Source: an uncultured Parachlamydiaceae bacterium
GTDB taxonomy: Bacteria > Chlamydiota > Chlamydiia > Chlamydiales > Parachlamydiaceae
DNA length: 64,000 nucleotides
Direction: 5' to 3'
NCBI GenBank assembly: GCA_963752155.1
Contig: CAVVXH010000002.1
Location: forward strand, 96,001 to 160,000
Below, piece after piece: positions 2-45,691 of the stretch (positions are counted from its first letter, which is position 1; every line of letters begins with the position of its first letter). The position numbers and the translations under genes were made by a program. Below the pieces are notes generated by a model. It made no database searches and had not been told where the DNA came from. It saw only the letters and a program-made list of their open reading frames with translations.

Positions 2-745
2 CTTGAAAGTTTGGGTTTCAAGTCTAAAGGCGAGTACAATATTCCGATGCGCCTTTATTTTAACAGGTCCGAAGGCATTGATACCAATCTTCATGTTTAT
101 GAAGACAGCCATCCAGAAATCGAGCTTAATCTTCTTTTCAGAGATTATTTGCGTGATCATCCAGAAGTGCGAGAAGAGTATGCGAGTTTAAAAGAAAATC
201 TTTTAAAGGATAGCGCTTCTTTCGAGAAAAGAAACTCAATGTTTACTGGCTATAACCTAGGTAAAGATGCATTTATAAGAAAAGTCTTAAGAGCAGCTAA
301 TTTTAATCGCATTCGCATCATGAAGTGTACACACTATACCGAATGGGAGACAGCTAAGCGATTAAGAAATAAATACTTTTTTGATCCTCTTTCCATTTCA
401 GATCCCTACACATGGACATTTGATCATCCAGAGCATGTTCACTTTATTCTTTATCAGGGGGTTGAAATCATCGGATATGCTCATATCCAATTTTGGCCAG
501 AGCATAGAGCAGCATTGCGAATCATTGTCATTGATGAAAAGTATAGGCAGCATGGATTGGGAAGCCAATTTTTGCAGCTTTGCGAGCAATGGCTGAAAAG
601 GCAAGGGATCAAATCAATTCATGATGAGGCAAGACCGAATGTTGTCAGCTTTTATCGCAGAAACGGCTTTACAGAAATGCCTTTTGAAGATCCTAGCGGT
701 GAACCGCCAAGTATTCATGATGTTGCAATGGGGAAAAATCTATGA
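2..745 (+). CDS. GrpB-family domain fused to C-terminal GNAT acetyltransferase (5' partial)
   Basis: Frame open from window start; GrpB-like NLHV...LLFRDYLRDHPEVREEYASLKE...Y..GKDAFI; GNAT motif A YRQHGLGSQ and FYRRNGF. Confidence 0.8.
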   Translation, partial: LESLGFKSKGEYNIPMRLYFNRSEGIDTNLHVYEDSHPEIELNLLFRDYLRDHPEVREEYASLKENLLKDSASFEKRNSMFTGYNLGKDAFIRKVLRAANFNRIRIMKCTHYTEWETAKRLRNKYFFDPLSISDPYTWTFDHPEHVHFILYQGVEIIGYAHIQFWPEHRAALRIIVIDEKYRQHGLGSQFLQLCEQWLKRQGIKSIHDEARPNVVSFYRRNGFTEMPFEDPSGEPPSIHDVAMGKNL

Positions 746-1587
746 TCCTTCAAATTAACCAGAATAAGCTTACTGATGATGTCAAAAAGAAAATTTTCAA
801 TGGATTTGGTCAGCAAGCGATCGAATCTACTGGAATAAATGGCCTTAGTGAAGAGCCCATTTCATTTGAGATTTTTGATGAAACGGAATTTGTGGGTGCA
901 ATTGTTGTCCAACCATTCTGGGAGCAGTTACATATCAAATATCTTTTCGTAGAAAAAAACTACCGTGGCCAAGGAATCGCTCGTCTGCTGATGAACCATG
1001 CATTGGAATTTGGGATAAAACGGGGGTACCATTTCGCTTTCGTAGAAACAATGAGTTTTCAAGCTCCAGAGTTCTATCAAAAAATGGGTTTTACGATCGA
1101 ATTTTCAAGGCCAGGATATGCAGAAAACACGACGTTTCACTATCTCAAAAAGTCTTTAAATAATGCTGAAACACGAAAGAAAATTACCAGAATCGGCGTC
1201 TATGGCGTTGTTACGGATGAGGGTAAAACTTTGGTTGTCCGACAGCAACGTGGACCCTATGCAGGTAAGCTCGACTTTCCGGGCGGCGGAATTGAATTTG
1301 GAGAATCAGCAGAACAAGCTATGCGTAGAGAGTTTGCTGAAGAGGTGGCAATGGAATTCGATTCACTTCAGCTGATAGACAATTTAACTGCGATAGTCGA
1401 TGTCTCATGCACCCCATCCAATGAACCTTACGTATTTTACCAAATCGGAATGATTTATCGAGTAAATGGCTGTCGATTGCTAAAAGGTGAAAAACTGGGA
1501 GATTTGCAGCACATTTGGATCGATTTAATGGCGTTATCCGAAGGACAATGCTCAAAATTAGTATGGAAATGGAGGATGATGCAGTGA
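742..1587 (+). CDS. GNAT-NUDIX hydrolase fusion
   Basis: YRGQGIA and TMSFQAPEFYQKMGF (GNAT); Nudix box GGGIEFGESAEQAMRREFAEE. Confidence 0.85.
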   Translation: MILQINQNKLTDDVKKKIFNGFGQQAIESTGINGLSEEPISFEIFDETEFVGAIVVQPFWEQLHIKYLFVEKNYRGQGIARLLMNHALEFGIKRGYHFAFVETMSFQAPEFYQKMGFTIEFSRPGYAENTTFHYLKKSLNNAETRKKITRIGVYGVVTDEGKTLVVRQQRGPYAGKLDFPGGGIEFGESAEQAMRREFAEEVAMEFDSLQLIDNLTAIVDVSCTPSNEPYVFYQIGMIYRVNGCRLLKGEKLGDLQHIWIDLMALSEGQCSKLVWKWRMMQ

Positions 1588-2579
1588 AAGAGAGTCCTTC
1601 AAATACTACAGATTCATTAACAACATTACCTGAACCAACAGGACCTCATCGTATCGGGACTACGAAATATGATCTTGAGGATGTTTATCGAAAAGATTTT
1701 CAATTTCCTCAAGGAAGATTGATACCGATTCAGATTTATTTTCCAATGGGGCAGGGGAGTCATTCCATTTTTCCGAAAATATTTGAAGAAAGAGCCGCTC
1801 TTGGACCCTTTGAACCTTTAAAAGTAGACGTCCATAGCCAACAGGCAGACCTGTCTCTTTTAATAGGGGATCTGCATCCTGTAATTATCTTGAATCATGC
1901 GAGCTGTGTGGCAATGACAGATTATGCCTTTCTTGTCGAAGATTTAACCTCTCATGGATATGTAGTCATTTCAATTCAGCATGATCTTCAATCCGACGAA
2001 GAGGGGCCTGTATTTTGGGAGGGAAGAAGCTGCTCAAGAAATGCAAAAGTTATCGATAACATTCTCTACGTTTTTGAGTGGCTTAAAATAACCCAAGCTA
2101 CTTTGTTCAATGGAAAGATCGACTTAAAGCGAGTAGGTTTAATAGGACATTCATTGGGAGGCAATTCCTTACTTCTCTGGTCAAATCGTACGCTTGATTC
2201 CTTCCAAAAAGATACTCGATCAGCGTTGCTTCCTCGCGTGGATCAAAATGACGTAAAGGAGTGTCTTGTCTTGATGGAAACAACGAGGTTTTCTTTTCCT
2301 TTCAATAGTCGTTATCCTTTATTTTTTCTTCTAGCAGAAGAACGAGAAGCTTACCACAAGGAAACTGGTTGTTATGAGCAAATGGCTCGAGCAGGACACA
2401 AAGTCCGCTACTACAAAGGATCCACTCATATAAGCTTCATGGATCATGCCTACGTCAATCCAAAACAGCATATGGATTTGAAAGAGGGATACTTTAATGG
2501 GATCTTAGAAGAAAAAAAAGCATTCTTTGAAACTGTTCGTAAAGACGTAAGATTTTTTCTGAAAGAGAGTGGGGTATAA
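1515..2579 (+). CDS. alpha/beta hydrolase (PAF-acetylhydrolase-like); probable start GTG 1584
   Basis: LPEPTGPHRIG N-terminus, GHSLGG nucleophile elbow, THISFMD. Confidence 0.75.
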   Translation: MDRFNGVIRRTMLKISMEMEDDAVKESPSNTTDSLTTLPEPTGPHRIGTTKYDLEDVYRKDFQFPQGRLIPIQIYFPMGQGSHSIFPKIFEERAALGPFEPLKVDVHSQQADLSLLIGDLHPVIILNHASCVAMTDYAFLVEDLTSHGYVVISIQHDLQSDEEGPVFWEGRSCSRNAKVIDNILYVFEWLKITQATLFNGKIDLKRVGLIGHSLGGNSLLLWSNRTLDSFQKDTRSALLPRVDQNDVKECLVLMETTRFSFPFNSRYPLFFLLAEEREAYHKETGCYEQMARAGHKVRYYKGSTHISFMDHAYVNPKQHMDLKEGYFNGILEEKKAFFETVRKDVRFFLKESGV

Positions 2580-44263: not shown

Positions 44264-45171
44264 ATGACCAATTTTTCATTCAAACCACTATCCACAAACC
44301 ACCTCGACTTGCTTCATAAATGGATGCAAGAACCACATGTCCTGCAATGGTGGGGCGAGGGGAGATCGTGGTCATTCAATGACATTAAAAAAAAATACAC
44401 CTCTTATGCTCTCGGATATAAAACTCAGCAAGGAGAGAAAAAACCGATACATTCCTTCGTCATCGAATTTGAAGATCGCCCAATTGGATTCATTCAATTT
44501 TACAATGCCTTTGATTTTCCCAGAGATGGATTCAATACGAAAGATATCTGGCATGATCAATCACAATCACTAGCTGCTATCGACTTTTACATTGGCGAAT
44601 CTGATTGCATCGGAATGGGATTAGGCCCACAAGCGTTGAAGGTTTTTTTGAATATTCATGTGTTTCCTCATTTTGATGCTTGCCTCGTTGATCCAGATAA
44701 AAATAATAAAGCTGCAATCAAGGCCTATGCTAAGGCTGGATTTTCTACTCTAAAAGACTTGGATACCAGCATTATAATGATTGCCAGGAAGGAAGAAATA
44801 AGAAACCCAATTATCATTTTCGGCAGTTCTCGTAGCGATGGAGATACTAAACAAGCAATCAAAACAGCAATACAAGACCAGCCGATTCCAATTACCGTTG
44901 GAGCGACTTGCTTGATATTCGCAAAGACATCGGCCGTCGTCTGACACATAAAGAACTGTACGTCATTACATCTTATGGTACAGAAATGCCAAGAGGATTT
45001 GAAGATGCCTTCTCTCAAACCTGTGATTATCTAGACATGCAATACAAAGGTTGTCTCTATTTTTACAGCGGTGAGGATACTAAACGCAGTAAAGAAAACG
45101 ACCTTATAGCTCAAAAATTCTTTGAACAAATCTGGAATACCCAACCTCATTCAAATCTGATCCAATTATGA
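44264..45171 (+). pseudogene. AAC(6')-like GNAT fused to a flavodoxin-like NAD(P)H oxidoreductase with an internal deletion near 44893
   Basis: WMQEPHV..WW, VDPDKNN.AAIKAYAKAGF; then FGSSRSDGDT..IPI jumps out of frame to RWSDLLDIRKDIGRRL. Confidence 0.7.
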
Positions 45172-45677
45172 AGAAAATATTTTTTATCATAGGAGCCTCA
45201 GGCTCGGGCAAAACCACTATTGTCAAAGAAATTGAAAGAATGATGCTTCCGAATTTTAAGACTATCTACTTTGACACTATTGGAGTGCCTTCCGTCGAAG
45301 AAATGATTCAAAACTATGGTGGACCAGAAGAATGGCAGAAAGTCAAAACCATTGAATGGATTGAGCAAATAAAACATAGGTTTTTAGCCTCCACAAATAT
45401 TGTTTTTGACGGACAAACAAGACCCTCTTTTATTGTAGAAGGATGCCTATCAATAGGCATAATCAACTATAAGGTTATATTGTTAGATTGCTCTGATGAA
45501 GAACGCAAGAGAAGACTCTTCGCTCGTGGTCAGGAAGAACTTGCAGATGACAACATGATGAATTGGGCAAGATATCTTAGAAACGAAAGTAAACAAAGAG
45601 GACATCTGATTATCGATAACACCCAACTTACAGAAAAGGAAACGCTTTCGCAACTACTGAATTATTTAAGCGCCTAA
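45168..45677 (+). CDS. P-loop NTPase (nucleoside/shikimate-kinase-like)
   Basis: GASGSGKTT, FDTIGVP, LDCSDEER..RL..R. Confidence 0.75.
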   Translation: MKKIFFIIGASGSGKTTIVKEIERMMLPNFKTIYFDTIGVPSVEEMIQNYGGPEEWQKVKTIEWIEQIKHRFLASTNIVFDGQTRPSFIVEGCLSIGIINYKVILLDCSDEERKRRLFARGQEELADDNMMNWARYLRNESKQRGHLIIDNTQLTEKETLSQLLNYLSA

Positions 45678-45691
45678 CTTAAAAAAGGCTA
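45678..45691 (+). repeat. 14-bp direct repeat, right copy
   Basis: CTTAAAAAAGGCTA immediately after the last stop codon of array D. Confidence 0.7.

Follow-up and report, generated by a model that had tools for sequence, protein, structure and literature searches.

We analyzed a window of 64,000 nt (positions 96,001 to 160,000 of contig CAVVXH010000002.1, here C2) from the genome of an uncultured Parachlamydiaceae bacterium, which carries five arrays of co-oriented, closely packed genes. They probably represent the bays in which a phage-plasmid of 94 kb, of the Criblamydia sequanensis type, carries its accessory genes (cargo); this element became integrated via a crossover in its own parA gene. 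The bays occupy fixed places in a conserved backbone, their contents turn over fast in modules of one to three genes, and homologues of these modules form a pool in chromosomes. A preceding sequence-only reading had attributed the arrays to a possible undescribed gene-capture system. The genome comprises 3.13 Mb (assembly 80% complete, 4% contamination), and gene calls are crude open reading frames (ORFs) from one caller, used alike for the arrays and the whole genome.

The window lies inside an element that spans C2:65704-159664 (window position 63664 equals C2:159664). With C2:55001-175000 as blastn query, the plasmid of C. sequanensis CRIB-18 (NZ_LK031773.1, 89,524 bp) was matched in collinear blocks of 84-95% nucleotide identity, and the array regions were left without any match. 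The shared blocks are as follows.

C2:65704-90256: tail, head and portal genes; plasmid 62573-87120, 94.8% identity over 24.6 kb
C2:90343-91839: AbiE pair; plasmid 88030-89524, 83.6% over 1.5 kb
Window 16331-17578: integrase and a small ORF; plasmid 19983-21230, 90%
Window 16330-17313, minus strand: the backbone tyrosine recombinase itself, of Pgp7/8 type by protein similarity and profile scores
Window 20382-24136, minus strand: packaging/late block with terminase large subunit (frameshifted near residue 40), small ORF, DNA methylase (frameshifted) and DUF1064; plasmid 23179-26928, 91%
Window 46009-54346: early/recombination block with early genes, exonuclease (50665-51222) and RecT-like annealing protein (52451-53374; PHROGs 298, 561); plasmid 42733-51082, 93.8%
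Window 57263-63664, minus strand: replication/partition block with primase-helicase and ParA, the latter cut at 63664 by the integration junction; plasmid 56231-62575, 91.8%

Of 62 plasmid backbone proteins, 61 were located in the same order and one backbone gene was absent. Amino acid (aa) identity to the Criblamydia plasmid amounts to 97.6% for the integrase, 94% for TerL and 100% for the major capsid protein. Pfam identified a virion module at C2:67.8-90.1 kb (baseplate, sheath, capsid, portal), which is followed by the AbiE toxin and then, on the opposite strand, by array 1. The RecT-like protein and the exonuclease, both encoded by backbone genes, matched PHROGs at 1.8e-19 and 6.9e-22, respectively. 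The element family has already been published as plasmids bearing phage genes: Köstlbacher et al. (2021; PMC7846284) describe the "phage group" of genes on this plasmid type and its transfer between Parachlamydiaceae and Criblamydia.

Both ends of the element, C2:65704 and C2:159664, map to plasmid position ~62573-62575, within parA, with TGT as the only sequence common to them and the flanks. ParA is therefore split, with the first 41 residues at the left end and the remainder at the right end. Contigs of four public sequencing runs agree with the window as far as 63663/63664, beyond which they run on in uninterrupted plasmid form; the break in parA is thus specific to the present genome. Here, both ends are joined to chromosomal DNA, which means that this copy is not a free circular replicon. 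An empty integration site was sought in five relatives, where the left flank gave only short repeat-like matches and the right flank none. No sequencing run held at least half of the words of window 62800-64000, and the RNA runs held a fraction of 0.06-0.10. Seven of the 62 backbone genes appear frameshifted or split compared to the plasmid (terL, methylase, a 548-aa ORF, ParA, MuF, portal and AbiEi). Read against the Criblamydia plasmid proteins, terL (20380-21730), the methylase (22196-23465), the 548-aa ORF (58482-60126) as well as MuF and portal (C2:88.0-90.1 kb) each appear in two frames. These frameshifts may reflect decay of the integrated copy or indel errors of the assembly; split genes are also common on another contig of this genome, C12. 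Further traces of the element family occur in the genome. A second copy, reduced to a decayed remnant, lies at C12:81556-84541 and aligns collinearly with window 14043-22098 at 76-87% nucleotide identity. It keeps the SDR gene, the small ORFs beside the integrase gene, the AraC-GyrI regulator and part of the ORF that neighbours terL, and is devoid of SnoaL, YhcG, integrase, kinase-like gene and terL. In chromosomal DNA ~9 kb left of the element (C2:56298-56407), two pieces of the plasmid AbiEi/terL junction were found (52 nt at 92% and 65 nt at 85%).

The arrays fill the regions between these backbone blocks. Bay A is situated between portal/AbiE and integrase and bay B between DUF1064 and the early genes; of two smaller bays, one precedes the terminase gene and the other separates the RecT and primase genes. 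Their features are listed below.

Window 1-10613, plus strand: first run of bay A (array 1), starting at C2:91941; GrpB-GNAT, GNAT-NUDIX, alpha/beta hydrolase, APH, DUF2608, NUDIX, DUF2608, beta-lactamase fold, unknown, LRR, unknown (ORFs, Pfam); no similarity to the Criblamydia plasmid
Window 10620-16320, minus strand: second run of bay A (array 2); PEP-mutase-like, Ada/MGMT, metallophosphoesterase, APH, SDR, SnoaL, YhcG nuclease (ORFs, Pfam, PADLOC)
Window 17951-20381, minus strand: small variable slot A'; kinase-like gene (18006-19223) and AraC-GyrI regulator (19383-20234); an AbiE toxin-antitoxin pair in the Criblamydia plasmid
Window 24137-46008: bay B (arrays 3, 4 and 5), with nothing similar in plasmid 26929-42732; cargo includes APH(9)-Ia-like, ANT(6)-like and Qnr-like pentapeptide genes and DUF7380/DUF4209
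Window 31516-33251, plus strand: broken ABC transporter gene, with 1-nt indels relative to an intact 603-aa copy on C12
Window 54714-57262: bay C; GNAT (54928-55410, minus) and alpha/beta hydrolase (56064-57131, plus); ars operon and AAA ATPase in the Criblamydia plasmid

In its description of the arrays the sequence-only reading was accurate. The five co-oriented runs are present at 2-10613 (plus), 10620-16320 (minus), 24354-36877 (plus), 36867-41536 (minus) and 41853-45677 (plus), and two pairs meet tail-to-tail, the first leaving 6 nt between its members (10613/10620) and the second overlapping by 11 nt (36867-36877). Array 2 is headed by the genes for the YhcG nuclease (15232-16320) and the tyrosine integrase (16330-17313), and neighbouring genes are functionally unrelated according to Pfam. 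The close packing was evident as well: same-strand gaps measured 50 nt or less in 34 of 39 array cases compared to 48.3% of 1,630 cases genome-wide (binomial p 4e-7, same ORF caller throughout). When runs were ranked genome-wide by length with no gap above 60 nt allowed, the top two, comprising 10 and 9 genes, both lay in the window. Within the arrays the median spacer is 2 nt, and four gaps extend to 74-223 nt. Apparent overlaps of 47-73 nt are due to the longest-ORF start calls, as in-frame ATGs occur just 3' of the upstream stop codon. The true start of array 1 is at C2:91941, ~4 kb left of the window; its genes there encode MarR, two GNATs and a NUDIX-methyltransferase-CPT fusion. Scans of the window for tRNA genes and Rfam families returned no match.

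Pfam families in the arrays comprise GNAT, NUDIX, APH, HIT, HAD, SDR, alpha/beta hydrolases, calcineurin-like metallophosphoesterases, beta-lactamase fold, LRR, Ada/MGMT, 2H phosphoesterase, ANT(6) and pentapeptide-repeat proteins. At 37445-39303, the APH(9)-Ia-like gene overlaps the stop codon of an AadS-type ANT(6)-like gene, and a Qnr-like pentapeptide gene comes next; this trio is conserved in the related genome G007 at 84% nucleotide identity. The APH(9)-Ia-like gene scored 433.6 bits (cut-off 680) and the ANT(6)-like gene 171 bits (cut-off 450). We take the reference family of the former to be the Legionella spectinomycin kinase. Among 45 cargo proteins searched with PADLOC, strong matches were limited to YhcG (15232-16320; PDC-S02, 445 bits) and the DUF7380/DUF4209 protein (24916-26772; PDC-S39, 672 bits). 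The arrays are therefore not one defence island; judged by these matches, the two genes are candidate anti-phage genes borne as cargo. An origin of the arrays by tandem duplication was rejected, as paralogues in the window are only ~70% alike at the nucleotide level.

The same slots hold other genes elsewhere in the family. In the Criblamydia plasmid, the slot at 1-19982 carries metal-efflux and sugar-metabolism genes, 11 of them co-oriented and tightly spaced and one on the other strand; the slot at 26929-42732 carries copper and metal resistance genes, and an ars operon resides between RecT and primase. When 400 genomes of the order were searched with the block from integrase to DUF1064, 62 gave a match, and for 10 related elements, many of them on 70-98-kb contigs, both sides of the bays were retrieved. 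In these, accessory bays occupied the same backbone positions. The distance from portal to integrase, available for eight elements, ranged from ~2.0 and 2.1 kb (G057 and G287) up to ~15.8 kb. Since the integrase is present where this slot measures ~2 kb, bay A can be very small with the integrase kept. The bays of G099 contain metal efflux genes resembling those of the Criblamydia plasmid. In G390, bay A contains nitric-oxide reductase and an IS5 transposase, and bay B a co-oriented run of GNAT-GrpB-CPT/GNAT-hydrolase-APH/GNAT-ABC-APH. Those of G247 hold methyltransferases, LysE, GNATs, a beta-lactamase-fold protein, MFS, APH and ABC-F. In G099, bays A and B seem to have swapped their leading parts compared to the Criblamydia plasmid: a palindrome described below is followed there by the AbiE pair and an efflux operon, and the portal gene by the sequence that comes after this palindrome in the plasmid.

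The closest element, that of G379, has a backbone 94% identical in nucleotides. Its bay A shares only YhcG (98.6% aa), SnoaL (93%), one metallophosphoesterase (89%) and LRR (92%), where the integrase-proximal YhcG-SnoaL pair is 94.8% identical in nucleotides; in bay B, five genes are shared at only 72-83% aa and in a different order. The unequal identity of adjacent pieces implies that they are of different ages. As backbones 90-95% identical carry wholly different slot contents, genes have been gained and lost at fixed places, and turnover of the bay contents far outpaces divergence of the backbone.

We also followed the cargo outside the element family by searching 40 relatives with the DNA of window 1-16320 and 24354-41600. 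Consistent with what the sequence-only reading had anticipated, gene order was not fixed: the longest array matches covered ~2.05 kb, equal to three genes, with differing neighbours. These were APH(9)-ANT(6) and APH-SDR-SnoaL, both in G007. The matches were gene-sized and 65-88% identical, and were located on different contigs and even in other families. Recurring modules in the relatives were PEP-mutase with Ada, NUDIX with DUF2608, APH-SDR-SnoaL, pentapeptide-APH(9)-ANT(6) and HIT-phosphoesterase-HAD. Neighbours had changed in G023, with APH beside LRR, and in G014, with DUF2608 beside Ada. Within the present genome, a 2.33-kb copy of the HIT-metallophosphoesterase-HAD module resides on contig C8. 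Copies of DUF2608, the ABC transporter, APH(9) and the AraC-GyrI regulator, 86% identical and differently ordered, are found on C12; their similarity begins 0-15 nt 5' of the start codon and ends at the stop codon. Breakpoints in contexts at least 90% identical fell 0-7 nt from stop codons. G011 contains cargo homologues (7 and 3 matches) and no backbone match, hence the modules also reside in chromosomes.

How the bays exchange their contents may be pictured as follows. Where co-resident elements and chromosomes have modules in common or carry paralogous ones, homologous recombination between these modules would exchange cargo. Illegitimate joins at microhomology, of which the TGT crossover that integrated this copy would be an example, would contribute as well; the RecT-like/exonuclease pair of the element may assist. 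In mosaic phage genomes, joints at gene borders result from random joining together with selection for intact genes and small size. In the same way, the near-zero spacers and the joints close to stop codons could stem from deletion and selection for a compact, packageable genome in which only intact ORFs are kept. Within the overall reading, we consider it about an even call that exchange proceeds by such general recombination and not by dedicated site-specific capture. Several points weigh against this view of the arrays. No event was caught in the act, so that the recombination route is inferred, and joints that hug stop codons despite longer non-coding DNA could reflect a mechanism more precise than random breakage and selection. 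The Pfam match of RecT is weak (2e-4), although PHROGs supports the assignment. Because the frameshifts are possibly assembly errors, this copy does not allow selection for packaging size to be demonstrated. Finally, a 100%-conserved palindrome at the border of bay B, both flanks of which differ between near-identical backbones, has the look of a site-specific exchange point.

This palindrome, AATAGGGAAACAGCTGTTTCCCTATT, is perfect in the Criblamydia plasmid and in six related elements, where it comes shortly after DUF1064 and marks the left edge of bay B. It comprises 26-28 nt and in some elements extends to 28 nt as an 11-6-11 arrangement. The 64-kb window contains only two full sites, given below as the 22-nt core; by chance, 1.25 half-site matches are expected.

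Window 24188-24209: copy at the left border of bay B, 1 mismatch to the consensus AATAGGGAAACAGCTGTTTCCCTATT
Window 15997-16018: copy in the YhcG coding sequence, 1 mismatch, in frame, encoding KETAVSL, 313 nt beyond the integrase stop codon

An isolated third copy is found at C12:79635-79656. In a census of 401 genomes of the order, 30 contained the palindrome in one to three copies each, and the reversed control gave 0 matches. In other elements it lies in bay A, at a distance from the integrase gene of 7 nt (G230) to ~6 kb. YhcG homologues of G016, G019, G021, G023 and G027 come from genomes without a match to the palindrome. Compared to the two integrases of the 7.5-kb Chlamydia plasmids, that of the present element shows 48-50% aa identity across 96% of its length (two places per record), and of the 126 plasmid records matched 124 are chlamydial. 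The palindrome of the present family is absent from the 7.5-kb plasmid of Chlamydia psittaci at up to 6 mismatches. That plasmid has perfect 28-nt 11-6-11 palindromes of another sequence at 3349-3376 and 7222-7249, near its Pgp7/8 integrase genes, which recall the site architecture of the present element. Inverted arms, a short centre, conservation and confinement to replicons with a recombinase are the hallmarks of lox- or dif-like sites, and all of them were found. On these sequence features, the palindrome is probably the target of the Pgp7/8-type recombinase and would most simply serve as a multimer-resolution site.

Alternatively, the Pgp7/8-type integrase might insert site-bearing circles at the palindrome, which would then act as a lox-like docking point at the bay edge. 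If true, chlamydial phage-plasmids would be a recombinase-driven gene-capture platform mechanistically distinct from integrons. The 11-6-11 architecture, the restriction to the 30 genomes and the position at the border of bay B or within bay A are in line with this possibility, as is the finding that the palindrome stays perfect where the adjoining backbone is only ~77% identical. Symmetric variants preserve the dyad, and a few elements possess two copies, as circle insertion would yield. We nevertheless regard this explanation as unlikely. Neither full nor half sites of the palindrome were detected at any of 40 cargo junctions, and bays A' and C have no site. A single copy, as in most elements retrieved, fits a dimer-resolution site better, and the chromosomal integration of the present copy did not use the palindrome. 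Moreover, the integrase-side border of bay A is not fixed. The Criblamydia plasmid diverges at the integrase stop codon, G379 keeps the whole YhcG gene, and G347 carries a ~85-nt decayed YhcG remnant beyond the plasmid breakpoint (nucleotide alignment score 59, null maximum 32). The six other elements compared in this way were not significant, and the raggedness of the border therefore rests on one clear case, G347; tblastn for YhcG remnants at 20 loci returned only G379.

A pick-up resembling specialised transduction, in which imprecise excision takes adjacent host genes and cargo accretes beside the integrase and attachment region, appears similarly improbable. Bay A does begin directly after the integrase stop codon, a second integrated copy is known from G347 (on a 1.9-Mb contig), and in genomes that lack the backbone, cargo homologues reside on the chromosome. 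Köstlbacher et al. (2021; PMC7846284) report that plasmid genes often pass into chromosomes and that genes flow frequently between plasmid and chromosome. However, cargo is present in at least four separate slots and not solely beside the integrase gene, and the sole integration seen was an illegitimate crossover in parA. Furthermore, the bays consist of many small modules of different ages, with 72-99% identity to the closest element, and not of one contiguous host segment.

That the arrays are ordinary chromosomal operons of a conserved pathway is very improbable: tight spacing and start/stop overlaps do suggest co-transcription, but no relative keeps more than three adjacent genes, the region belongs to a mobile element and the domains come from unrelated families.

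A degenerate or integrase-less integron, i.e. a CALIN-like cassette array, can practically be dismissed, even though the arrays consist of co-oriented, promoterless-looking small genes from families common among cassettes and the AraC-GyrI regulator has a Cass2-like domain. The integrase is not of IntI type, as the integron-integrase models scored far under their cut-offs (TIGR02249, 32.8 bits versus 265; NF011946, 21.3 bits versus 435). The median spacer of 2 nt leaves no room for attC. No attC-like element was detected in agreement with the sequence-only reading: 77 inverted-repeat pairs formed no family at the junctions (IntegronFinder's attC model was not run), and a motif search across the 40 array junctions returned no common motif but A-rich and stop/start words. 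The geometry of attI is not matched either, since cargo starts after the integrase stop codon, 3' of the gene and not upstream. Compared to G379, integrase-proximal genes are conserved and distal ones differ, a polarity opposite to that of integrons. The further proposal that genes are added downstream of fixed promoters was not borne out. Promoter and terminator consensus sites in 23600-43500 numbered 58 and 15, compared to 53.1 and 14.7 in shuffled sequences, and genes beside the border of bay B point in both directions in different elements. Of the proposed mechanism other than a classical integron, the negative part thus holds, given that neither integron integrase nor attC-like site nor junction motif was found. 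The positive part, an undescribed dedicated capture system, finds no support: the integrase is a plasmid backbone gene that is present even with a ~2-kb slot, and the junctions share no site.

The cargo bays can be compared to several known systems. The Criblamydia plasmid and other "phage group" plasmids have a collinear backbone, the same slot places and likewise tight co-oriented cargo runs. The present element differs in being integrated with a split parA, in several apparently frameshifted backbone genes and in its cargo, which consists of small-molecule-modifying enzymes instead of the metal-resistance, arsenic and sugar-metabolism genes of that plasmid. Mosaic temperate phages with 'morons' and P1-type phage-plasmids also have conserved modules broken by accessory genes, with joints at gene borders; further common features are recombination genes of RecT/exonuclease type encoded by the element itself and a full virion module next to genes for plasmid partition and replication. 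The bays described here are unusually large in comparison, at ~20 kb each and ~45 of 94 kb, and one separates terminase from portal. With integrons and CALIN, the arrays share co-oriented, closely spaced, unrelated small genes beside a tyrosine recombinase gene and contents that vary between relatives, but not IntI, attC, the attI/Pc geometry, a junction motif or insertion polarity. Similar to Cre/loxP of P1 and one-subunit Xer/dif systems, the palindrome is a usually single-copy site with inverted arms and a 6-bp centre on a replicon with a single Xer-like tyrosine recombinase. Unlike in those systems, it may be as close as 7 nt to the recombinase gene or several kb away, and one copy lies inside a coding sequence.

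New in this work are the integrated copy split in parA, the cargo of small-molecule-modifying enzymes including APH(9)-Ia-like and ANT(6)-like genes and the two PADLOC candidates, together with explicit tests for a capture system, which came out negative. The element would represent a phage-plasmid that moves between chlamydial families, its fixed bays loaded with ~45 kb of exchangeable cargo. Here, that cargo consists of relatives of antibiotic- and nucleotide-modifying enzymes (APH(9)-like, ANT(6)-like, GNATs, NUDIX, HIT) and two candidate defence genes. The arrays also provide a good data set on how mosaic joints come to fall exactly at gene borders. Caught in an integrated and possibly decaying state, the copy makes visible one way in which genes pass from plasmids to chromosomes, a flow reported for Chlamydiae.

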